DNA of 64,000 bases from Planktothrix tepida. Lineage in GTDB: Bacteria > Cyanobacteriota > Cyanobacteriia > Cyanobacteriales > Microcoleaceae. The first letter of the stretch is position 1. Every line of letters starts with the position of its first letter. The stretch lies in the NCBI RefSeq assembly GCF_904830955.1, contig NZ_LR882970.1; one strand, 5' to 3'. The translations under genes were made by a program, and so were the position numbers. This document shows positions 16,057-39,698 of the stretch, piece after piece. The notes beneath the pieces were generated by a model. The model saw nothing but the letters and a program-made list of their open reading frames with translations. It was not told the DNA's origin and did not search any database.

Positions 16057-16974
16057 TTAACGGGAAATTCCGACTTGTTTTAAAACTGTTAGGGGGTGAT
16101 AGGATTTCAGCCATTGTAGTTGTTGGGAATTTCTGACTAATAATCCTCCCGCAAACCCTAAAGAATTAATTGAAATACCCTCAAACTCTTCTTGAGATCG
16201 AGGAACAATCATCATCCAATTTCGGGTGGCTAATAAATTATAAGCTCCTGATTGAAAGGGATGATCGTCAACGGATAAACCCACGGCTGATAATAATGCA
16301 AAATACAATTCTAGGGTAAAAATTGAGGCTTCTGATGGGGTATGAATCCAATTGGGATTAAAAGAGGCGATCGCATGAACAAATGGAAATTCGAGAATGA
16401 TGCCAATAGAATTTTTAAATTGTACAGAAGTGATCGCGGGTTCAATGGGAAGATTTAAGCCATCGGGAACTAAGGGGAAAGGAACTAATTGTAAATGTTT
16501 ATGCCGTTGACTTGCTCCCGCTAATTTACCCCCATTATAAAACATTAATCCATCAATTTCTGCTAAACCCATCCACATAGCTGCAAAATCGGCTTGAGTC
16601 AGCCAGGTTTCTTGTTCTTCAAATTCGCGGGTTACAATTAATAAATGATGCTCAACTACATTAAATTTATTCAGTAAACATAAATGAGTTTTCGATAAAT
16701 CAGCAACAAATAAATCTTTTTCATAAGGAAGAAAAGGGTTAAACTCTTTCCCGGATTTCTCTATTTTTTTTTGCTGTTTCTTCGCTTGTTCCTTACGCGC
16801 TAAGTTAGCTAAAATTCTGACTAAAAAGCGAATATCCCCCTCTTCAATAAAATCATAATCTGTTGCAATTGATTGAAGAGCACCACAGTTGAGAGCATAT
16901 TCAGTTTGAGTAATAATCCGTTGCCATAATGTACCTGTTGGCAAGACTGAGGTTGCTGCTGTCTCTGTTGTCAT
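16057..16974 (-). CDS. ATP adenylyltransferase / Ap4A phosphorylase-II family protein (HIT-like GalT branch)
   Basis: The HKHLQ sequence (HxHxQ nucleotidyl-transfer motif) lies in the C-terminal domain (QRHKHLQLVPFP). A lysine-rich linker is present. 305 aa. Confidence 0.6.
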   Translation of the reverse strand: MTTETAATSVLPTGTLWQRIITQTEYALNCGALQSIATDYDFIEEGDIRFLVRILANLARKEQAKKQQKKIEKSGKEFNPFLPYEKDLFVADLSKTHLCLLNKFNVVEHHLLIVTREFEEQETWLTQADFAAMWMGLAEIDGLMFYNGGKLAGASQRHKHLQLVPFPLVPDGLNLPIEPAITSVQFKNSIGIILEFPFVHAIASFNPNWIHTPSEASIFTLELYFALLSAVGLSVDDHPFQSGAYNLLATRNWMMIVPRSQEEFEGISINSLGFAGGLLVRNSQQLQWLKSYHPLTVLKQVGISR

Positions 16975-17190
16975 TTTAATCTAAATTGGAATTGAGGTCT
17001 TCTTCCTATCTTAAATTAATTCAGCACTTTATTATCAATAGGGAAAAGGGAACAGAGGGGATAGGAAAAAGTGATTAGCCACCCTAGCAAGTATTTGTAG
17101 TCAACATTGAAGGATGGAATCTCACCCCCTTCTTCCTATGAGTCGGGGGTTGAAGCAGAGATCAAACCCATCTAAAATTCCAATTTTGAG

Positions 17191-17946
17191 TTACCCACAA
17201 GAACGGGACACTTTAGTTTTTAATAACTCATCTAAACTGGGGTCTTGAATCTGAAGTGAGGAAGATTCCATCAGAGCATCTGACCATAACTGATGTTCCA
17301 CAAAATATTGAATCCGAGCTAAAGTAATTGCTTCTGCGGTTGCTTTTTGTTGATGCAGTTGCGTTTCTAATTGTTCTAAATCCTGCTGAATTTTCTGGTG
17401 TTGATGGGTTTCTATGACTTTAAAAGTTAAAGAGTCACGGGGAAAATCACTGATATCAGGATTAGAGATATCATAAAGTGATAATTGATAGGTTTCTCCG
17501 GGTTGAAGTGGTTCTCCCGTATAGGAAATACTTTGCTTAGAATCCGAAATATTTTGACTCCAAATTAAAGTCTCATTGTCATCAGAATGCAGTTCTACAT
17601 ATTTAATATCCCCTCGCCAAATAAAGGTAGGTTTGTCACTCCAAATTTCACTATCAACCTGATTATTATTAGGTTGGGTTAGAGGAACAATTGTACAAAT
17701 TTCATTTCCCCGTGAACCCCCAGGAGAATAGACAGGCGGTTCATGATTAGTCGTTGAAGAATCCTGATTAGCAAGCTGATACAATTCTTCCCAAGCAGGG
17801 GAAATCTTTTTAAATTCTGAAGGATGAAACGTGGGTTCACTCAAGGCGGGAGAGATAACCGAAAATCCCATTATGCTTACCAAGGTTGTGCATCTCCAAA
17901 GAGAACGCACAAAGTTGAACTTAGCCATAAAATTTCCTTTCCACAA
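17191..17946 (-). CDS. Secreted hypothetical protein (DUF928-like), last gene of the CHAT-CHASE2 operon
   Basis: It has an N-terminal signal peptide (VSIMGFSVISPALS). 251 aa. Its start overlaps the stop of the upstream CHAT-CHASE2 gene. The family assignment is from memory of cyanobacterial DUF928 proteins, not a computed match. Confidence 0.5.
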   Translation of the reverse strand: MWKGNFMAKFNFVRSLWRCTTLVSIMGFSVISPALSEPTFHPSEFKKISPAWEELYQLANQDSSTTNHEPPVYSPGGSRGNEICTIVPLTQPNNNQVDSEIWSDKPTFIWRGDIKYVELHSDDNETLIWSQNISDSKQSISYTGEPLQPGETYQLSLYDISNPDISDFPRDSLTFKVIETHQHQKIQQDLEQLETQLHQQKATAEAITLARIQYFVEHQLWSDALMESSSLQIQDPSLDELLKTKVSRSCG

Positions 17947-20428
17947 ATGTCAGAAAAATATACATCCAAAACATCAAGGCTGGTAACACCCAAGGAAGCA
18001 AAAGTTCGCCTGTAATATAAACCTGTACACTCACTAATCCATATATTCCTGTTAATCCCACAAACACCAGGATATACTTTATTTTTTGAGGACGAACTGT
18101 TGCTAAGGATAAGGTCGCTCCTTTTCCGAATAAAGCGGCAATTAAAATCAGCAAAAGGTCAGGAATGGGAATCACAAATCGTTGCTGAATAAAGTGATGA
18201 GTCATGTAAGCATGAACTTCACCTCCCGGTAAGACTTGGCGATAATTGCGTGGTGTTTCCTGAGAATACCAATAATTTAATGCCATAGGTAAAGGAAAAT
18301 TATCTTGACCTTCTGTTGCAATTCCGGCTTCACCATATCCCCCTGGTGCAATTAGAACGACAAAGGGAGTAGAAAGTTTCAAGGTAGACTCTGGAGACTC
18401 AAATAATTGCCAAGCGGGAAGACTTTGATAAACTTGTTTTGGGGGAATTGAAAAATCAATCAGGGGATGAAACCACCATTGCTTTAATAAATATGCCCAA
18501 TTTGTGATCGGTTGTAAACGTGCTTTTGATGAAAATAACCTTTGATAATCTGTTCCGGTATTATCAATTAAATAGGCTTTTAAATGGGATAGCCAATCAA
18601 CGGATGAGTCCAGTTGAGGGGCAGGGGTAGATTCTCGTTCTTGAAAGTTTAATTGATACGCTAAAGCCAATAAATAAGCGAAGGGTAAAGGTTGTTGTCG
18701 AGAGTCAGGAAGAGGCAGTAAGGTGGTATAGAGGGGAGGATAACCTAATATTCTTAAATCGCCTTGTAAGCTCCAATTAGGACTCGCTAATTCGGGTAAG
18801 GTTTCAAACCATCCTCCGGTGGGATTTTTACTCGTTCCAAATATTAACCAAGTTTGATGATTTTGAACTGCATTTTGTAAAGATTGGGATAAGATGGGAT
18901 CGTTTTGAGGTTGATGACGATCTAATAAATAATCAATGCCAATTACTTGCATATTGAGTTTAATTAAATGATTAATAATCTCAGCTAAATAACTTCGATC
19001 CATCGGTCTTGGATTAGAAATTTTAGCTTTTAGAATAGATTTTTCATCAATTAAAATTAGTAGAATTGGGGGAGAGGATTGAGTTGGAATTTGATGAGTT
19101 AAATTTCGATAAATTGCTTGAATCAAAATTCGTCGTTCTAATAAAAAATTTTGAATAGGCGTTTGCCAAGCGATAACGCATAAGGTTGTTAGGGCAAGGA
19201 GTTCTTTTTTTGTGGGGAACCATCGTTTTAATCGTTGTTTCCAACTGAAGGCTTGTAATTTAAACGGAGGAGCTTTGGGATGGCGGAATAAGGAAGGAAT
19301 TAAATAGGCACTGGGATAAGTTAAATGTTTTTCTAATTTGAGGAATTGACAAGCGGATAATAAGGCATCATGGACATCATAATATTCCGTTAAGCTCCGA
19401 ATAAACCGTAATAAAAATTCTTGAGCCACTTGATTATGGATAGGTTCTCGCATAATCGCCACTTGATTTAATCCTAAATCAATCAAGGTATTCGCTAAAC
19501 TTAAACCATTACAAGAATTAAATAAGGCAAATTGTAAGCCTCGTTGTTTTGCAACAGTTAAGGGTTGAATCAGTTCGGATAAGGACAACGAAACTGAGGG
19601 CGCAATCCCTAATTCTCCTCCGGTTAATTCCGTTTCATTACTATGACCAGCAAATAGTAAAATATCCCAACCTTTTTGATCTTGAATAGCTTTAACGACT
19701 GCAAGTTTAACCTCCATTACAGTTTGTTGAGGTTGCCAACCGACAAACTGAATTTCTGCAATTGGAGCGAGCGCTCGCACCGCTTCTTTATCAGCTTGAA
19801 AATTTAACCCCGTTTCATCTCCTAAAATCACTAATACCCTAACTTTATTGCGGGTTGGTCGATGTTCGGGAGTCGTTGTAACCTGACGAATATTAATTGG
19901 TTGACGAACAATTCTAATTTTTCCAGTCGCCGCAAATTCTGTACCAATTTCCCACGCTTCCCAAGGAAGTCGAGCCACATCTATCGGGTCAGTGGTGAGA
20001 AACACATCAATATCTAATCCAACGCCACGCGGTAAAGTTTCTAAATTCTGCTTTGATGTCGCTTTAGCCAGAGTTGCTCGAATTTCATATAATTCTTCAT
20101 GTCTTAACCAGCGATGAAATTCATATAATAATTTTGCTTCTGCTTGAACTAATTTAGCGTGCCAATCTGTTTGGCTTTGGGTAAGTTTTCCGGTCGCTTC
20201 CACTCGACCTCGCAGTGCTTTCTGATAAAAACTCAAATAAATATATTGCCACTCTTGATACAGTTGAGTTAATCGTTCAGGATAGGGAAGCGTGACTCCC
20301 AAATTTTGCCCTTCCCCCCAAGATAATTGAAATAAGCAAACCTGCTCAACTCGTTGAACTTTGAGATAAAAAGGGGAAACAATGGCATTCATATTTAGGT
20401 TTTGAATCTTAATTGAAACTAAATTCAA
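17921..20428 (-). CDS. CHAT (caspase-like) protease domain fused to a membrane-anchored CHASE2 extracytoplasmic sensor domain
   Basis: The caspase-type catalytic dyad is present as LLFAGHSN (His) and ALFNSCNG (Cys). Downstream there is one TM segment, a CHASE2-like block (ILLILIDEKS...DRSYLAEIINHL...VIGIDYLLD) and three C-terminal TM helices. Confidence 0.8.
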   Translation of the reverse strand: MNLVSIKIQNLNMNAIVSPFYLKVQRVEQVCLFQLSWGEGQNLGVTLPYPERLTQLYQEWQYIYLSFYQKALRGRVEATGKLTQSQTDWHAKLVQAEAKLLYEFHRWLRHEELYEIRATLAKATSKQNLETLPRGVGLDIDVFLTTDPIDVARLPWEAWEIGTEFAATGKIRIVRQPINIRQVTTTPEHRPTRNKVRVLVILGDETGLNFQADKEAVRALAPIAEIQFVGWQPQQTVMEVKLAVVKAIQDQKGWDILLFAGHSNETELTGGELGIAPSVSLSLSELIQPLTVAKQRGLQFALFNSCNGLSLANTLIDLGLNQVAIMREPIHNQVAQEFLLRFIRSLTEYYDVHDALLSACQFLKLEKHLTYPSAYLIPSLFRHPKAPPFKLQAFSWKQRLKRWFPTKKELLALTTLCVIAWQTPIQNFLLERRILIQAIYRNLTHQIPTQSSPPILLILIDEKSILKAKISNPRPMDRSYLAEIINHLIKLNMQVIGIDYLLDRHQPQNDPILSQSLQNAVQNHQTWLIFGTSKNPTGGWFETLPELASPNWSLQGDLRILGYPPLYTTLLPLPDSRQQPLPFAYLLALAYQLNFQERESTPAPQLDSSVDWLSHLKAYLIDNTGTDYQRLFSSKARLQPITNWAYLLKQWWFHPLIDFSIPPKQVYQSLPAWQLFESPESTLKLSTPFVVLIAPGGYGEAGIATEGQDNFPLPMALNYWYSQETPRNYRQVLPGGEVHAYMTHHFIQQRFVIPIPDLLLILIAALFGKGATLSLATVRPQKIKYILVFVGLTGIYGLVSVQVYITGELLLPWVLPALMFWMYIFLTFVERKFYG

Positions 20429-21779
20429 AAGGCGGTAATGTTTCTGTTATATCTTCCCTTAAACTCACCGTCACCACAAATTTTTCTTGACAGGTTCCGA
20501 CCACACGAGTAAATAAATAAGAACACTGATCTTCGCGATTTGAATCTTGTTCAACTAAAATTCCGGTGGCGTCACTGACTCGTAATTTCACACCCACTGG
20601 TAAATCCGTTCCTGTAGTTAAACCTAATATTAATAATAGCGTCCATTCGGGTTCAATTTCCCATTCTAACGGCCAAGTTAAAGCATATAACCGCAGAGAA
20701 CGTCCTCCTAAACCTAAATCTCGATAAGCACCTTTGGCTTGGGGAGAAATTTCGACCCCATTTTCTTGGAGTTGTTTGACTAAACTGGAAATTTCAGTTC
20801 CGTCACGCAAGGCGGTTTCTGGAGAAAAATCTGGAATAAAAACCCAGGATAAAGCTGTTGATATTATGTCTAATTCCTGGTTAAACCATCCCGCTAAATT
20901 TAGCGTCGGTTGTGTTAATAAATTGAATAAATCTGTTAAATAAGCAATAGGATTTTTATGGAATTGAGAAATCGGTTGTGCCGATAAAATGGCTTGGTTT
21001 TGTACTTCATAAATCCATCGCAGTAATTCAGGATAACTGAAAATAATCTTTCCCTGTTCCCAAGTTAAAATTTGCCACAATTCATGAAAACTACCAGGTT
21101 CTGAGGATTGCAGTTGAGAAAGTTTGCTAATTAATTCTTCTCGAATTTGAGATAATAGTATTGCAGGATTCTGAATTTCCGGTAAAGGAATTGCAGAAAC
21201 TTCTAAACAGCGTACAAATAATAAAAATTGATCGGGTTCTGTGTTAAACCAAGATAAGGGGACAGAATATGTCCAATCTGCTTTGGGTTCTAAATCAATC
21301 TGTGTTTTATGGGCTTGAAAATCTGAATAGGAAATAAACCCATAAATTGAAGTTGTTTCTAATTCTTCTTGAACCTCAATTAAAATATAATAATGAGCCC
21401 TATATTCCGGTAATTCAAATATAGCCCTAGGTAAAATAATAGTATCCGTCCTAGAATTTCCCAAGGCGACTAAGCAGATTTTAAATTGATTGACGGCTAA
21501 GTTACAAACGGCTTCAATAAAATAAGCTAATTCAGGTTTTTCTAAAGAAGGATGATCTAAATTGAAGACAAGTTCTGATGAACGCTGTTCTAACCAATTT
21601 TGAAACCCAAAGAAGGCTAGAGAATTGAGATAGGTTTGCCATTGTTTTCGATCATCGAGAATAGAACGACAATAATCTAAGGATTGATTAATTTGTTCAG
21701 AAGATAAGGGTAAGGCTTCAGGGTTAAGCGGTTCAAACTCAAACAAAACCTCTGATTCATCTAGGAAAGAAGTAAACAT
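20409..21779 (-). CDS. DUF1822-like hypothetical protein (a cyanobacteria-restricted family)
   Basis: 456 aa with no catalytic motif. It is translationally coupled to the CHAT-CHASE2 gene: its stop overlaps that gene's start. The family call is from memory of DUF1822 sequence character. Confidence 0.5.
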   Translation of the reverse strand: MFTSFLDESEVLFEFEPLNPEALPLSSEQINQSLDYCRSILDDRKQWQTYLNSLAFFGFQNWLEQRSSELVFNLDHPSLEKPELAYFIEAVCNLAVNQFKICLVALGNSRTDTIILPRAIFELPEYRAHYYILIEVQEELETTSIYGFISYSDFQAHKTQIDLEPKADWTYSVPLSWFNTEPDQFLLFVRCLEVSAIPLPEIQNPAILLSQIREELISKLSQLQSSEPGSFHELWQILTWEQGKIIFSYPELLRWIYEVQNQAILSAQPISQFHKNPIAYLTDLFNLLTQPTLNLAGWFNQELDIISTALSWVFIPDFSPETALRDGTEISSLVKQLQENGVEISPQAKGAYRDLGLGGRSLRLYALTWPLEWEIEPEWTLLLILGLTTGTDLPVGVKLRVSDATGILVEQDSNREDQCSYLFTRVVGTCQEKFVVTVSLREDITETLPPFEFSFN

Positions 21780-21781
21780 TA

Positions 21782-23269
21782 TTAATAGCTCCGTCGGGAA
21801 TTTTTAGATAATAAAGAAATCATGGAATGAATCAATTCTGGACTTTTTTCTCTTAAATCTAAATAGTAGCAAACGCCTTTAAAAAAGGGACTATTTAGGG
21901 GACGATTTTGAGCAATATAGGAATCAGATTCAGCTTGTTTAAACAAGGTTTCCAATTCTCCATCTAAGGCTAATTCAATTTGTTTTTCCCACTGTTCTAA
22001 CTCTTGGGAAAGATGCTCAGGTTTGGCATACTCTAAAATGCGATCGCGTAACTGAAATAATAAGTGATGTCTGACATCAGCGCGAAAGGCTTTAAGCTTT
22101 AATAAACGAGTTACTTGATACTGAGCTTTTAATCCTAATGTAGCTGCAATTTCGCTCATAGATTGACCCTGACAATGAAACAGATAAAGGGCGGTTAAAA
22201 ATTGTTCCGCTTTTTCTCCGTCTCGCTTTTGGCAAGTTGTTAACCAGGTTTCTAAAACTTGAGCAATACTGCTATGTAAACACATCAAAAACTGTTTTTC
22301 ATACCAGTTTAAAAACTCCTGTTTTTTGATTTGTTCCTCATCGTTTTCTAGGGGTTCAGGGCTAGGAATTTGTTCAATGATGGAATCAGAATCATCAACA
22401 AAAATTAAGGATTGGTTGGGTAACTTTCCTCCTCGAATATAGGTGCGATATTGGCGTAATAGAGTCGCTAGATTTTGTAATTTCAGGGCGACGGCTTTAG
22501 GAGAAATCCTCTGTTGAATTAAGGTTTCTAACCGTTGAGCAATTTGTTGATATTGTTGAGCCGTTGGCGGTTGACAGCGTTTTCTAGCTCCGGCTTGACG
22601 TTGTTGTAAACGTTGGCTACGGTAAACGCTATGGTAGCAAGCTAAAAGCTGTAATCGTTGTTCAACTTCCAGGGACGTTAATTGATAAAACTGGGTTAAA
22701 ATTTTTTCCAGTTGTTGAGGATGGGTATCATTTAAAATTGCCCAATCACTCACGAGATACACCCCATGCTCTAGTAAAAACTTATTGATTTCACTATTAA
22801 ATTTAACTCGTCGGTTTGTCCAAGTTGCTAAACTACTTTGCTGGGGATCAAAGGTTTGTAAAATTTCCCGTGCAAAGGATTGATAAGAAGTTTTTGTTTG
22901 TCCTAAATGGCGCTGACGATTAATTCCTTCTTCATCCAAAACAAAGGGGAATAAGTCTTGGCTTCTAAAACCATGATAGGTTCCAAATTGTTGAGCTAAC
23001 TGAAGACAAACCTGTTCAATTTCCCAAGAAATAAAGCATAAAAGACAACATTCTGCATTTTGGCTATTGATATTATTCCCTTGAGAATTGCCATCACGAA
23101 GCCATTGTACTAATTGCTTCTGAATGGGTACATCGGGAACATCCGCCTCTGCGAGGAATTCTGGAAAAGCCCTCTCAAAAAAGGCTTTGGCTGCTGCTAT
23201 TTCCGACCGTTTTTGTCGGCCAGAACTTTCGAGTTTAACCAGTGTCCAATACTTTGATGCTTTACTCAT
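21782..23269 (-). CDS. Hypothetical protein, lead gene of the CHAT operon, with a possible C-terminal HTH-like segment
   Basis: 495 aa. Its stop lies 2 nt upstream of the DUF1822-like start. The segment MSEIAATLGLKAQYQVTRLLKLK resembles a helix-turn-helix. Otherwise unrecognised. Confidence 0.5.
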   Translation of the reverse strand: MSKASKYWTLVKLESSGRQKRSEIAAAKAFFERAFPEFLAEADVPDVPIQKQLVQWLRDGNSQGNNINSQNAECCLLCFISWEIEQVCLQLAQQFGTYHGFRSQDLFPFVLDEEGINRQRHLGQTKTSYQSFAREILQTFDPQQSSLATWTNRRVKFNSEINKFLLEHGVYLVSDWAILNDTHPQQLEKILTQFYQLTSLEVEQRLQLLACYHSVYRSQRLQQRQAGARKRCQPPTAQQYQQIAQRLETLIQQRISPKAVALKLQNLATLLRQYRTYIRGGKLPNQSLIFVDDSDSIIEQIPSPEPLENDEEQIKKQEFLNWYEKQFLMCLHSSIAQVLETWLTTCQKRDGEKAEQFLTALYLFHCQGQSMSEIAATLGLKAQYQVTRLLKLKAFRADVRHHLLFQLRDRILEYAKPEHLSQELEQWEKQIELALDGELETLFKQAESDSYIAQNRPLNSPFFKGVCYYLDLREKSPELIHSMISLLSKNSRRSY

Positions 23270-23430
23270 GGATTAGGAACAGAGGAAGTCGGTGTCTTGT
23301 TGAATTCGGCTTATAAATCCCAAGCCACCAACAACTCCAACGAGTGATTTAGGACAGAGGGGCAAGGTGATCTCACCCCTCAAGTTTACCTATCTCTGAA
23401 GTGATTCAACTTATGCAAGCTCAAACAGAA

Positions 23431-24087
23431 TTAGAGCCCCAAAGAATTTGATATTTTAGGCGTTGGGGTGATTTTAGCTTTGGGTTTCCAATCATATTCC
23501 ATGTATTGAGCCGTTTTTAAAGCTTTGTCATCCCCTAAAAGTTTAGCAATAACATAAAGAGACACATCAATTCCCGCCGAAATTCCGGCCGCTGTGATAA
23601 TTTTGCCATTATCAACATATCGTTGATTGTCTACAATAGTAGTCTGGGGAGCAAGCGCTCTTAATTGCTCTAAGGCTAGATGATGAGTAGTCGCAACTAA
23701 CCCATCTAATAAACCAACTTTAGCTAACAGTAAAGCCCCCGTACAGACCGATACAATTAAATCAGCATAATGTCCTTTAGATTGAATCCAAGCTAAAATT
23801 TGAAGTTGATTCATCGCAGCCTTTGTGCCAATTCCACCCGGTATAAAAATTACATCAGGGACGGGACTATCTAATAAGGTGAAATCAGGATTAATACTTA
23901 AGCCATTATGGGATTGAAGAGAATTTAAGGTTTCTGCCACTAGATAAACATTAAAGGGTTTATCTTCGTTAATTTCTGAGGCAATAGAAAATACCTCATA
24001 GGGGCCAGCAAAATCCAGAATTTCAACGTCATTAAACATTAAAATAGCAATATTTTTTTGAGTCATTAGTTCAGTAATCCTAAACAA
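23431..24087 (-). CDS. DJ-1/PfpI family protein (class I glutamine amidotransferase-like)
   Basis: The nucleophile-elbow Cys sits in IVSVCTGALLLAKVGLL. 218 aa. N-terminus NIAILMFNDVEILDFAGPYEVF. Confidence 0.85.
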   Translation of the reverse strand: MFRITELMTQKNIAILMFNDVEILDFAGPYEVFSIASEINEDKPFNVYLVAETLNSLQSHNGLSINPDFTLLDSPVPDVIFIPGGIGTKAAMNQLQILAWIQSKGHYADLIVSVCTGALLLAKVGLLDGLVATTHHLALEQLRALAPQTTIVDNQRYVDNGKIITAAGISAGIDVSLYVIAKLLGDDKALKTAQYMEYDWKPKAKITPTPKISNSLGL

Positions 24088-24107
24088 AAAGGATAAGGGG
24101 TTAAAAT

Positions 24108-24482
24108 ATGGTAAAAAAGCGTTTTGGGTTTCAGAATCTTATTCTGGCTATTACAATCATTTTAGGGGTTACGCTGGGTTGGAATAGTTTGACCTTAGCA
24201 CAAGGTTCAGCCACTCAGCTTGAATATCGCATGAGTCGATTAGAAGCACAAGTGTCTCAACTGGCAGGACAGATTAATAGTTTGCGATATCAAAGCTCAG
24301 GAACAACAGTAATTCAGGTTGAACCAGATGCAACCAGTCCTCCGCCTCAACCGGAAAATCGTTTCCTTTCGGGTGATCCGATGTTTGATCGGTTAGCCAC
24401 CTTAGTCATAGAAACAAAACAAGATGTGCAACAACTTCAAAAACAAATCGCGGATTTAAAAGCGCGAATAGACACCCAATAA
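24108..24482 (+). CDS. Hypothetical exported coiled-coil protein
   Basis: It has an N-terminal signal/TM segment. Heptad-like LEAQVSQLAGQINSL and LQKQIADLKARI segments are present. Confidence 0.45.
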   Translation: MVKKRFGFQNLILAITIILGVTLGWNSLTLAQGSATQLEYRMSRLEAQVSQLAGQINSLRYQSSGTTVIQVEPDATSPPPQPENRFLSGDPMFDRLATLVIETKQDVQQLQKQIADLKARIDTQ

Positions 24483-24641
24483 TTAACGGTTAAACGGGTC
24501 GAGGAGATGTGACTGTAGCGGAATGTCAAATATCCTGAAATCATAGTGCTGCTCGATGATCTGAGAAGTTAAAATTTATTCTCCTCATCTTAGAAGATTG
24601 ATCAAGAGCAGCACAATCTTTAAAAGTGGATGATGTTAAAA

Positions 24642-25165: not shown

Positions 25166-26082
25166 TGATAAGAACTACGAACTAACGGCCCAGAACGAAC
25201 TTGAGCAAAACCCATCTCCGTTGCGATCGCTCCTAAATGCTCAAATTCTTCCGGTGTCCAATATTTTTGGACGGGGAGATGCTCTAAAGACGGACGCATA
25301 TATTGACCGAGGGTAATGCGATCGCATCCCGCCCCGCGTAAATCTGTTAAAGTTTCAATAATTTCTGCTTCCGTTTCCCCGTGCCCTAACATTAAACCGG
25401 ATTTTGTAGGAATTCGAGGATCAAGCTGTTTCACAATTCTTAATACATCGAGCGATCGCTCATATTTTGCGCCCCGTCTGACAGGCGCTTGTAACCGTTG
25501 GACAGTTTCGACATTATGGTTATAACAGGCAGGTTGAGCTTTAACTACAGTGGCAATGCGTTGATATTGAAGGGCTTGGGGATTCCCCCCACCTTGCCCG
25601 CCCCAAAAGTCAGCCGTTAGAACTTCAATCTGAGTCTCTGGGGTGAGATGTCGGATGGCATCCATGGTCGCGACAAACCAGCCTGACCCCGCATCGGCTA
25701 AATCATCTCGCGCCACAGAGGTTAAAACCACATACCGTAACCCTAAAATTTGTACCGCTTCCGCTACCTTTTGGGGTTCTTCTGGATCAAGGGACATGGG
25801 TGCATGACCCTTATCCACCTGACAAAAAGCGCAGGAACGGGTACAAGTTGGCCCCATTAACAAAAATGTTGCGGTTTTCTGAGCATAACATTCCCCTCGA
25901 TTTGGACAACGACCTTCTTCACAAATGGTGTGAATTTGACGCTGTTTGATAATTCGTTGTACCGCAGAGAGTTCACTCGCTTTACCCAGGGGACGGCGTA
26001 ACCAATAAGGGAGCGGTTCAACAAAATTTTGAGACCGATTACGATAAGATTGTTCAGCAGAGGAATGGGGAGATGGGGACAT
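25153..26082 (-). CDS. lipA: Lipoyl synthase
   Basis: The radical-SAM CxxxCxxC motif is present as [11 protein letters not shown], along with the auxiliary cluster [12 protein letters not shown]. 309 aa. Confidence 0.9.
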
Positions 26083-38777: not shown

Positions 38778-39539
38778 ATGGTACTTGATATTATTATGAA
38801 TGTCGATGAATTTCTCCGAAGATATGCAGCGGCGGAACGTAATTTTCCTGAGATTGACTTATCTTCTGTTGATTTACAAGAAGCCAATTTAGTGAACTTA
38901 AACCTCACCAGAGCTAACTTAAGTTATTCGGATTTACGAGAAGCGAGATTAGGAAAAGCTAACCTGTCTAAAGCCAATCTTGTCCAGGCTAACTTAAGTG
39001 AAACTATTCTCTGGGGGGCTGATTTAACTGAAGCCAATTTATATCAAGCTCAGTTACGAGAAGCCGATTTAACTGGGGCGAAACTTTTTAAGGCATCCTT
39101 AAAACAAGCCCAACTCATGAAAGCGTGTTTATCGGGATGTGATTTAAGAAATGTCAATCTTTTCCAAGCAATTCTTTTTGAAGCTAATTTTCGCCCCAAT
39201 CATAATCAACAAACGGATTTAAGTTATGCGATTTTAGCGGAAGCCGATTTAAGTTATGCCAATTTTAGTGGGGCGATTTTACATCAAGCTAACTTGGAAA
39301 AAGCCAAGCTCTGTCACTCTATTTTTGGGGTTTCGGGTTTAGGGCTTTTAAGCTCTGAACAAAGTTATCATACCAACCTCAGCGAAGTCAATTTAAAAGG
39401 GGCTGATTTAAGTTATGCGGATTTAAGTGGGGCTAATCTATGCAATGCTGATTTGCGAGGTGCTGATTTAACTCGCACCATTTTAACGGATGCTAATCTC
39501 AATGGGGTGATTATGCCAGATGGTAGTATTCATGATTAA
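38778..39539 (+). CDS. Pentapeptide-repeat protein
   Basis: Tandem A(D/N)LxxA(N/D)L pentapeptide repeats run through the sequence. Confidence 0.85.
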   Translation: MVLDIIMNVDEFLRRYAAAERNFPEIDLSSVDLQEANLVNLNLTRANLSYSDLREARLGKANLSKANLVQANLSETILWGADLTEANLYQAQLREADLTGAKLFKASLKQAQLMKACLSGCDLRNVNLFQAILFEANFRPNHNQQTDLSYAILAEADLSYANFSGAILHQANLEKAKLCHSIFGVSGLGLLSSEQSYHTNLSEVNLKGADLSYADLSGANLCNADLRGADLTRTILTDANLNGVIMPDGSIHD

Positions 39540-39698
39540 GGATTCTGTAGAAACGGGGCTTTGAACAAGATAAAATTGATGAAAAAACCCAGTTTCTCTC
39601 GGAATTAATATTTAGTTTAGGAGTGTAGTTCCATAGGATTATCCTTAATCTTCTACACCCCAAACCTGCTCTAAATCCCAGGTTTTGAGAATCGCAAC

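Follow-up and report, generated by a model that had tools for sequence, protein, structure and literature searches.

Two conserved gene pairs around a CHAT-CHASE2 protein of Planktothrix tepida: a candidate route from an extracytoplasmic cue through caspase-type proteolysis to transcription

What might a filamentous bacterium do with a caspase-like protease that is anchored in its membrane, fused to an extracytoplasmic sensor and encoded in a row with three partner proteins? This question is raised by positions 17191-23269 of the 64,000-nucleotide stretch of Planktothrix tepida DNA analysed here (contig NZ_LR882970.1; hereafter the window), where four minus-strand genes, designated g1 to g4 in the order in which they are read, encode an all-helical cytoplasmic protein, a DUF1822 protein, a CHAT-CHASE2 membrane protein and a secreted DUF928-like protein. 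Judged by its sequence, the system represents in Planktothrix the 'EACC2-caspase' systems that have a CHASE2 sensor, a class described in a study that was computational only (Kaur, Iyer, Burroughs and Aravind, 2021; eLife 10:e70394), and the locus consists of two tight pairs, g1-g2 and g3-g4, that are often but not always joined on one strand. With regard to function, we place at about even chances the reading that an outside cue sensed through CHASE2 activates the CHAT protease, that g1 is released from the DUF1822 protein, and that transcription changes in consequence. The contribution is a refinement and not a discovery: new here are the two-module synteny statistics and the conserved translational coupling, including a -8 overlap of g3 and g4; the definition of the g1 family, with its sigma-4-like helix-turn-helix (HTH), and of fusions tying g1 to CHAT proteases; and a predicted DUF1822 structure that is at odds with the published description of a 'TPR protein' and that raises a nuclease-like alternative.

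In the systems so described, EACC2 is a constant alpha+beta domain located immediately N-terminal to the caspase domain, with a variable sensor at the C-terminus (Kaur et al., 2021). The supplement to that study (PMC8195603) contains the architecture 'EACC2+CASPASE+CHASE2+TM+TM' and lists a gene order for Fischerella, and because the neighbourhood listed there is the same, the gene order of the window, including its DUF928-like gene, has already been catalogued; the novelty implied by an earlier, sequence-only reading of the window was to this extent overstated. The authors further reported an association of DUF1822 and an extracytoplasmic function (ECF)-type sigma factor with EACC2-caspase genes, proposed stimulus-induced autopeptidase activation in which a TRADD-N protein and/or the sigma factor forms the last step, and grouped the systems with those that serve apoptosis and immunity in multicellular bacteria (Kaur et al., 2021; eLife e70394). 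The likeness to the window is close, in that an N-terminal module, a caspase or CHAT domain, CHASE2 and transmembrane (TM) segments follow one another in a single protein, with DUF1822 upstream and a 'TM+beta_rich+TPRs' protein downstream. The features on which the following argument draws are these:

21782-23269, minus strand: g1, 495 amino acids (aa); all-helical, cytoplasmic; without a Pfam family; proposed output module
22049-22195, minus strand: sigma region-4.2-like HTH of g1, residues 359-407, TALYLFHCQGQSMSEIAATLGLKAQYQVTRLLKLKAFRADVR...
20409-21779, minus strand: g2, DUF1822 protein (Pfam), 456 aa, strongly acidic; proposed adaptor or latch for g1
21180-21536, minus strand: N-terminal alpha/beta domain of g2, approximately residues 82-200, with a conserved Gly-Ser turn and an acidic cluster
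20439-20735, minus strand: C-terminal beta-sandwich of g2, approximately residues 349-447
17921-20392, minus strand: g3, CHAT-CHASE2 membrane protein, 823 aa; the longest open reading frame (ORF) reaches 20428 (835 aa)
20054-20392, minus strand: N-terminal module of g3, a candidate EACC2 domain preceding the protease, by residue conservation and architecture match
19352-19975, minus strand: CHAT (caspase-like) protease domain of g3, Pfam PF12770
19643-19645 (His262) and 19511-19513 (Cys306), minus strand: catalytic codons of g3, verified
18128-19183, minus strand: CHASE2 extracytoplasmic sensor of g3, Pfam PF05226, with TM1 at its start
17948-18178, minus strand: three C-terminal TM helices of g3, Kyte-Doolittle peaks 1.86-2.07
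17191-17928, minus strand: g4, secreted DUF928-like protein, 245 aa; longest ORF 17191-17946 (251 aa); proposed periplasmic co-sensor
17839-17928, minus strand: signal peptide of g4, ending ...SPALS

The four ORFs lie exactly where the sequence-only reading had placed them (21782-23269, 20409-21779, 17921-20428 and 17191-17946), and the 2-nt spacing that it gave for g1 and g2 is likewise correct, the junction being TAA-TA-ATG. The overlaps of -20 and -26 nt claimed for the two following junctions arose because the longest, TTG-initiated ORFs had been taken, and starts supported by homologues replace them with a gap of +16 nt and an overlap of 8 nt. Specifically, 36 homologues place the start of g3 at Met13 (ATG at 20392), such that the 823-aa protein begins 16 nt beyond the DUF1822 stop codon, and orthologues place the start of g4 at Met7 (MAKF..., ATG at 17928), such that the gene encodes 245 aa, is preceded by AGGAAA and overlaps g3 by the 8 nt ATGGCTAA. 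Scans of the operon for promoters and terminators returned matches at chance level.

Whether this arrangement extends beyond Planktothrix was assessed in 80 g1-anchored loci from species-representative genomes and 80 g3-anchored metagenome loci. Species-representative genomes hold 262 g1 loci, nearly all in filamentous or otherwise multicellular cyanobacteria, and the carriers include bloom-forming Planktothrix, relatives of Trichodesmium and members of the Nostocales. DUF1822 follows g1 directly in 77 of the 80 g1-anchored loci, g2 being undetected within the sequence examined in the other three. Among the 58 g2-containing loci in which g3 was present or at least 4 kb of sequence lay beyond g2, 27 have g3 on the same strand and within 10 kb, and 13 of those 27 have it beginning less than 200 nt after g2. 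Viewed from the g3 side, g4 lies directly downstream of g3 in 54 of the 58 loci with room for it, g2 adjoins g3 upstream in 36 of 57 and is nearby in 5 more, and g1 was found in 33 of 46. The junctions follow the same pattern: g3 and g4 overlap in 66 of 79 loci, the commonest value being -8 nt, as in the window; g1 and g2 overlap in 46 of 108; and the g2-g3 junction is the loosest, with overlap in 10 of 62 and a distance of more than 100 nt in 25 of 62. The same gene order on one strand is thus shared by dozens of independent genomes and metagenome contigs, and by the Nostoc or Aliinostoc loci L036 and L059 as full clusters, far beyond chance, and the concern that the four genes might be a chance juxtaposition is answered. 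The claim of a translationally coupled operon holds within the pairs g1-g2 and g3-g4, where coupling is conserved; the two pairs are themselves often linked, but less tightly, and the locus is not an indivisible four-gene unit.

Genes found between separated pairs are of three recurrent kinds: those for small TPR proteins (approximately 320-400 aa), those for large TPR-CHAT proteins that bear signal peptides, and one for a caspase of the Peptidase_C14 family with a twin-arginine (TAT) signal. Insertions of the TPR-CHAT and C14 kind, either between the two pairs or beside them, were located at 13338-17882 of L073, 13477-16011 of L067, 14373-17438 and 17513-19678 of L072, 4930-7926 of L129 and 1033-4623 of L094, and of the long loci 14 of 59 and 15 of 29 (24-52%) contain additional CHAT genes. 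These observations suggest that TPR-CHAT and C14 proteins form an optional layer of periplasmic proteases acting upstream of CHASE2, and an optional TPR-caspase gene is likewise carried by loci related to the published systems. Small TPR proteins are the commonest downstream genes where g1-g2 occurs without g3 (18 of 31 loci). They look cytoplasmic and often stand two in tandem (L006, 14955-15929; L042, 13144-14298; L054, 11697-12905; L081, 2760-3845), one such gene lies just upstream of g3 in a locus devoid of g1-g2, and they may represent a further component or an alternative partner. As no TPR-CHAT, small-TPR or C14 accessory gene is present in the window, the P. tepida locus is the minimal four-gene form, and in this it differs from those EACC2-caspase systems that have a TPR-CHAT accessory.

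Two g1 loci were observed in single genomes in several instances, among them an Allocoleopsis metagenome-assembled genome (MAG; L040 and L044), a Microcoleus MAG (L053 and L074) and the pairs L032/L062 and L035/L071. Paralogous copies of the system therefore exist, and these may account for g1-g2 pairs without adjacent g3-g4. Typical cyanobacterial g1-g2 pairs (46-49% identity) were also seen in MAGs labelled as Actinomycetota (L026), Acetobacteraceae (L064) and Candidatus Sericytochromatia (L020), where they are probably binning contamination.

The sensor and the protease of the system reside in g3, which comprises the EACC2-like N-module, the CHAT protease, a moderately hydrophobic TM1, CHASE2 and three strong C-terminal TM helices. 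The predicted topology places the N-terminal approximately 395 residues (N-module and CHAT) in the cytoplasm and CHASE2 in the periplasm. In Pfam searches the DUF1822, CHASE2 and CHAT calls of the sequence-only reading all exceeded their thresholds, CHASE2 (PF05226) comfortably (58.9 bits against a cutoff of 26.3, E = 7.6e-16) and CHAT (PF12770) narrowly (24.8 bits against 24). The borderline CHAT call is secure because most of the 120 best g3 homologues bear a precomputed CHAT annotation and because the caspase-type motifs FAGH(262)SNE and FNSC(306) show no variation among 37 aligned homologues; the His/Cys dyad that had been claimed (H262/C306) is intact. Homologues of g3 number approximately 1444, most of them annotated 'CHASE2 domain-containing protein', and relatives by sequence include no solved structure. 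The module of approximately 113 aa ahead of CHAT is strongly conserved across all 37 aligned homologues, with L22, C31, F33, W37, Q41, Y57, W60, Y64, R73, G74, W89, E97, W107 and R117 invariant, and is matched by no Pfam or NCBIfam model; it is a candidate EACC2 domain, the identification resting on the matching architecture string in the published supplement (Kaur et al., 2021).

If g3 supplies sensor and protease, what could be its output? The first gene of the Fischerella row is entered as '??' in the published table (Kaur et al., 2021); here, by contrast, g1 emerges as a defined family of approximately 681 clusters at 50% identity in an exhaustive search, from which individual relatives were drawn among the 150 strongest matches listed. 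Its approximately 1000 homologues are all annotated 'hypothetical', and g1 matches no Pfam or NCBIfam model. The AlphaFold2 (AF2) model of g1 (pLDDT 81) is all-helical after a small beta-hairpin. Residues 359-407 (LFHCQGQSMSEIAATLGLKAQYQVTRLLKLKAFR) align in exact register with region 4.2 of RpoE, E. coli residues 144-191 (hhalign, P = 0.0084), and a second, weak match lies colinearly upstream at positions 83-103 of the sigma profile (P = 0.014). In the same comparison, three control families gave P values of 0.04-0.85 and the positive control, ECF against groups 1-3, gave 1.4e-7. The sigma profiles were shallow, being built from E. coli RpoE, FecI, FliA, RpoH, RpoS and RpoD and one cyanobacterial sigma factor; E. 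coli proteins were used because approximately 2 Mb of fetched cyanobacterial loci contained no ECF sigma factor and only one group-1/2 sigma factor.

Additional observations on the HTH agree in direction. Its residues are invariant or nearly so across 40 homologues, among which weak Pfam matches to HTH_40 (8 members), HTH_18 (5) and HTH_23 (2) were recorded, and in a Foldseek search with the g1 model 4 of the top 16 matches were sigma factors, none of them significant: a model of B. subtilis SigD, at E = 0.07 and a probability of 0.82, together with the sigmaA chains of three holoenzyme structures. At the same time, g1 is the only candidate at the locus for the ECF-type sigma factor that has been reported beside EACC2-caspase genes. 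Weak as the sigma evidence is, g1 likely carries a sigma-4-type HTH; that it is a complete, RNA-polymerase-binding sigma factor is unproven. The 'unknown' 495-aa protein of the sequence-only reading is still without a Pfam or NCBIfam family, and is now better viewed as the likely output, with an HTH resembling sigma region 4.2.

A connection between g1 and the other components is provided by natural fusions, found as g1 relatives among the matches listed from the exhaustive search. Firstly, P0444 and P0459 join g1 and DUF1822 in a single chain, which indicates that g1 and DUF1822 act together. Secondly, P0489 combines a CHAT domain, with His/Cys motifs of its own, a TRADD-like_N domain (PF20694) and the g1 module including its HTH, evidence that g1 modules and CHAT proteases function together. 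Thirdly, P0406 consists of an AAA_35 (STAND-type) NTPase, TRADD-like_N and the g1 module, and P0361 of AAA_35 and the g1 module, so that the g1 module appears to be reused as an output in NTPase-based as well as protease-based systems. The fusions thus put a protease or NTPase, together with an adaptor, upstream of the g1 module. By this comparison of sequences, the operon would be equivalent to the three functions of P0489 (protease, adaptor and g1) divided among separate proteins, with a membrane sensor added.

The adaptor position would be filled by g2. DUF1822 covers g2 with E = 1.6e-54 (Pfam), all 44 aligned homologues match the model, and the protein has 63 D+E against 29 K+R. Its AF2 model (pLDDT 82, pTM 0.79) begins with an alpha/beta domain, continues through a helical middle and ends in a beta-sandwich of eight strands; this sandwich resembles Ig-like and leukocidin-type domains. 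On this model g2 is not a TPR solenoid, which contradicts the description of DUF1822 as a 'TPR protein' with TRADD-N; the proteins are labelled 'TRADD-N+TPRs' in the published supplement (PMC8195603), and the model instead combines an alpha/beta domain that has nuclease-like matches with a beta-sandwich, TPRs being absent. TRADD-N is described as an RRM-like fold with a 'uS' motif in the beta2-beta3 turn (Kaur et al., 2021), and the Gly-Ser turn conserved in DUF1822 (G107-S108) matches this hallmark. The family also conserves the acidic cluster D111, D122, E125, E135, Q137, E138, E139 and E141, in which the window protein is substituted at two positions (T111 and E122). No resemblance to known anti-sigma folds was seen in the g2 model, and relatives with a solved structure included none of use.

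Completing the second pair, g4 scores 21.2-21.4 bits against DUF928 (PF06051), under the cutoff of 26. The sequence-only call of DUF928 therefore needs qualification for the window protein itself, yet 22 of 52 syntenic orthologues match the model at E <= 1e-3 (best E = 1.6e-7), for which reason the label 'DUF928-like' is fair; by its sequence g4 appears to be a divergent branch of the DUF928 family. C78 and C244 are nearly invariant among orthologues. A central stretch bears weak Ig-like similarity, three orthologues match the Ig_Rha78A_N Pfam domain, and the family profile gives a weak match to a rhamnosidase chain; relatives with a solved structure included none of use. A region near the C-terminus is labelled 'TPRs' by Kaur et al. 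(PMC8195603).

A mechanism that would unite these components can be outlined in four steps. The periplasmic g4 protein and the CHASE2 ectodomain would together form the receptor for an extracytoplasmic cue. The signal would cross the membrane and activate the CHAT protease in the cytoplasm, and this might involve self-processing near the EACC2-like N-module. The active protease would then cleave or remodel the acidic DUF1822 protein, which is envisaged to keep g1 inactive. Lastly, freed g1 would bind DNA and/or RNA polymerase by means of its sigma region-4.2-type HTH and so reprogramme transcription. A cytoplasmic protease, an extracytoplasmic CHASE2 and a partner with a signal peptide all fit the earlier idea of a signal-activated proteolytic switch, which Kaur et al. 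(2021) had likewise put forward on computational grounds, the switching itself being what we infer.

By analogy, the proposed logic would be a caspase-gated version of the release of ECF sigma factors by regulated proteolysis, and would provide a multicellular bacterium with a one-way, cue-triggered switch. Systems of related logic are known. The classical case of regulated proteolysis is sigmaE with RseA and DegS-RseP, whose rpoE-rseABC locus was observed in E. coli; in CalpL-CalpT-CalpS, a cOA4-activated Lon protease cleaves an anti-sigma factor and thereby frees an ECF sigma factor; and in the type III-E CRISPR Craspase, gRAMP with a TPR-CHAT protein (Csx29) cleaves Csx30, which is linked to an RpoE-type sigma factor. 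The Calp and sigmaE systems share with the proposed scheme the sequence of signal, proteolysis of a latch protein and liberation of a sigma-type regulator, and sigmaE additionally shares an extracytoplasmic signal and a periplasmic partner (RseB). Their proteases are Lon and S1 or S2P, however, in place of a caspase-like CHAT, and g2 is without an anti-sigma-like fold, g1 is approximately 2.5 times the length of an ECF sigma factor, and it fails the Sigma70 hidden Markov models (HMMs). Craspase, too, couples partner cleavage by a sensor-activated CHAT protease to a sigma-type transcription output; its sensor is a cytoplasmic, RNA-guided CRISPR effector, whereas that of the window is a periplasmic CHASE2 in the same polypeptide as the protease, outside any CRISPR context. 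Both Csx30 and CalpT have been cited as precedents for a CHAT or Lon protease acting on sigma/anti-sigma components (Evans et al., 2025; PMC12642450).

Several results weigh against release of g1 by proteolysis of DUF1822. With respect to the sigma-like output, none of 40 g1 members matches a Sigma70 Pfam model at E <= 5, and the g1 family profile retrieved no sigma chain from the PDB at E <= 10. With respect to the adaptor, TRADD-like_N is matched by none of 44 DUF1822 members in Pfam and gave P = 0.19 with hhalign, and the N-terminal domain of the g2 model has PD-(D/E)XK nuclease-like matches. With respect to the locus, g3 is missing from 31 g1-g2 loci whose sequence extends 4 kb or more beyond g2; approximately half of the g1-anchored loci with enough sequence have no g3-g4 within 10 kb, and therefore the pairs can be encoded apart. 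Finally, the literature yielded no experimental papers on DUF1822, DUF928 or CHAT+CHASE2, and the earlier remark that no function is known stands to that extent.

Foremost among the alternatives is that the system holds a latent death effector, such that activation of the CHAT protease frees a toxic component, without mainly changing transcription, and one cell of a filament dies, whether to limit the spread of phage or as programmed cell death; candidates for the effector are the EACC2-like N-module of g3 and the nuclease-like domain of DUF1822. We regard this as somewhat doubtful. EACC1, whose organisation inspired the EACC2 name, has been shown experimentally to be a pore-forming toxin that is released by its partner caspase-like protease, and nucleases that become active on cleavage are a frequent design (Evans et al., 2025 preprint; PMC12642450). 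EACC1 modules resemble g3 in that a small constant module is coupled to a caspase-like protease fused to variable sensors, but EACC1 is a small protein in its own right with another sequence, EACC2 forms the N-terminal part of the protease chain, and as far as known the two are not homologous, the name reflecting organisation. The nuclease version meets a difficulty of its own in the T111 and E122 that the window protein has at conserved acidic positions. That Kaur et al. classify these systems with apoptosis and immunity, that the g1 module is also fused to AAA_35 NTPases of the STAND type typical of conflict systems, and that related loci often have extra secreted TPR-CHAT and C14 caspase genes are all in keeping with a lethal outcome. 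A defence role, one of those suggested by the sequence-only reading, nevertheless found no positive support: the four proteins had no match in PADLOC-DB v2 at E <= 0.1 (the only one listed, at E = 0.2, being noise), and the operon is flanked by housekeeping genes that are conserved within the genus. Moreover, the identity pattern looks vertical and not patchy. Most known anti-phage sensors detect cytoplasmic phage components, and the sensor of g3 faces the periplasm.

Transcriptional and lethal outcomes could also be combined. In a bolder, 'death-receptor-like' reading, which we judge unlikely, a secreted DUF928-like co-receptor and CHASE2 would detect a signal that comes from adjacent cells or the envelope, the receptor-tethered protease would cleave DUF1822, and DUF1822 would be a dual latch, freeing g1 as a highly divergent, oversized sigma-like factor and perhaps unmasking a PD-(D/E)XK-type nuclease, such that four polypeptides decide between adaptation and death. 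The comparison with the metazoan TNFR1-TRADD-caspase-8/NF-kB pathway, raised by Kaur et al., rests on a similar order of events, namely an extracellular cue, a TM receptor, a TRADD-N-type adaptor, a caspase and a decision between transcription and death; it is an analogy only, the TRADD-N assignment in DUF1822 was not reproduced, and Death-fold domains are absent here. Were the reading correct, DUF1822 would be a new protease-gated effector or adaptor fold, and g1 an unrecognised sigma-like branch restricted to multicellular cyanobacteria.

The two pairs might instead be independent, with g3-g4 an envelope sensor-protease that acts on another substrate and g1-g2 an unrelated pair whose adjacency has no functional meaning, a proposal we consider quite improbable. 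It would explain why the g2-g3 junction is the loosest of the three, why the 31 g1-g2 loci described above do without g3, why approximately 28% of g3 loci with room have no g2 within reach, and why TPR, TPR-CHAT and C14 genes can separate the pairs. It does not sit well with the finding that loci containing both pairs, even when drawn from distant cyanobacterial lineages, invariably have them on one strand and in one order, with g2 adjacent in 63-72% of g3-anchored loci, far above chance. The existence of P0489 as a single chain of CHAT, TRADD-like_N and g1 also speaks against independence, as does the separate report of DUF1822 and a sigma factor in association with EACC2-caspase genes (Kaur et al., 2021).

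Least credible of all is the proposal, prompted by the HetF and cell-fate analogy of the sequence-only reading, that g3 is a HetF paralogue controlling cell division or differentiation: both are CHAT-domain proteins of filamentous cyanobacteria with a His/Cys dyad, and a weak local HetF match crosses the CHAT region of g3 (E = 0.0024), but orthology was rejected at 16.2 bits against a cutoff of 1200 for the HetF equivalog NF045509, host biology differs in that Planktothrix does not form heterocysts, architecture and partners differ in that, to our knowledge, the N-module, CHASE2, TM helices and operon partners have no counterpart in HetF, and because of the low score and the non-heterocystous host the analogy reduces to the shared CHAT fold.

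The system is widespread beyond Planktothrix, and it couples an extracytoplasmic CHASE2 sensor with a caspase-like protease and a probable regulator of transcription. Once found, its cue and substrate would provide the first ligand or function for a CHASE2/DUF928 pair. They would also test caspase-type proteolysis as a controller of gene expression or cell death in multicellular bacteria, and would shed light on the evolutionary connection that has been claimed between TRADD-N/caspase modules of bacteria and apoptosis signalling in animals.

How the system came to P. tepida can be approached through its relatives and its surroundings. The g3 protein is 97% identical to one of Planktothrix mougeotii, and in a Planktothrix MAG (L011) all four genes recur between identical neighbours, DJ-1/PfpI on the upstream side and Ap4A phosphorylase on the downstream side. 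Identity of g1 is approximately 67% with another Planktothrix, 50-53% with Limnoraphis, Capilliphycus and Lyngbya, and 44-49% with Nostoc, Aliinostoc, Calothrix and Scytonema. Because identity falls with taxonomic distance and because the flanks are common to another Planktothrix, the operon looks less like a mobile island than like a resident regulatory system that has been inherited vertically. Across the operon and the DNA just beside it (16500-24500), G+C content is 0.34-0.40, as compared to 0.42-0.51 in surrounding genes; the flanks shared with another Planktothrix argue against a recent acquisition despite this lower G+C. Further neighbours in the window are housekeeping genes, encoding alanine dehydrogenase, EPSP synthase, a radical-SAM enzyme and a response regulator, and the sole RNA gene of the window is a tRNA-Leu.

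A few minor features of the surroundings were recorded. An exact 10-mer, GGGGTGAGAT, occurs at 17119-17128 and 23370-23379 (both minus strand), in intergenic DNA on either side of the operon and within hairpin-like sequence, and a third copy lies 2.3 kb further on at 25640-25649 (plus strand). Allowing one mismatch, GGGGTGAGAT has 7 matches against 2.8 expected, a number reached by 2 of 100 shuffles. An interpretation as the ends of a mobile element was rejected, as alignment of the flanks shows no similarity outside the core, and the 10-mer could be a short regulatory or terminator-associated motif, or a product of chance. A 124-aa ORF at 24108-24482 (plus strand), which diverges from the DJ-1 gene adjoining the operon, encodes a probable signal-anchored coiled-coil protein with weak Pfam coiled-coil matches, and is not conserved beside the system elsewhere. 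Finally, a pentapeptide-repeat gene directly follows DUF1822 in Limnoraphis, Lyngbya and Capilliphycus (L001-L003, L007, L024 and L049), and the window encodes a pentapeptide-repeat protein at 38811-39584 (plus strand), approximately 17 kb from the operon, that is 33-37% identical to those proteins, a similarity that may reflect the repeats alone.

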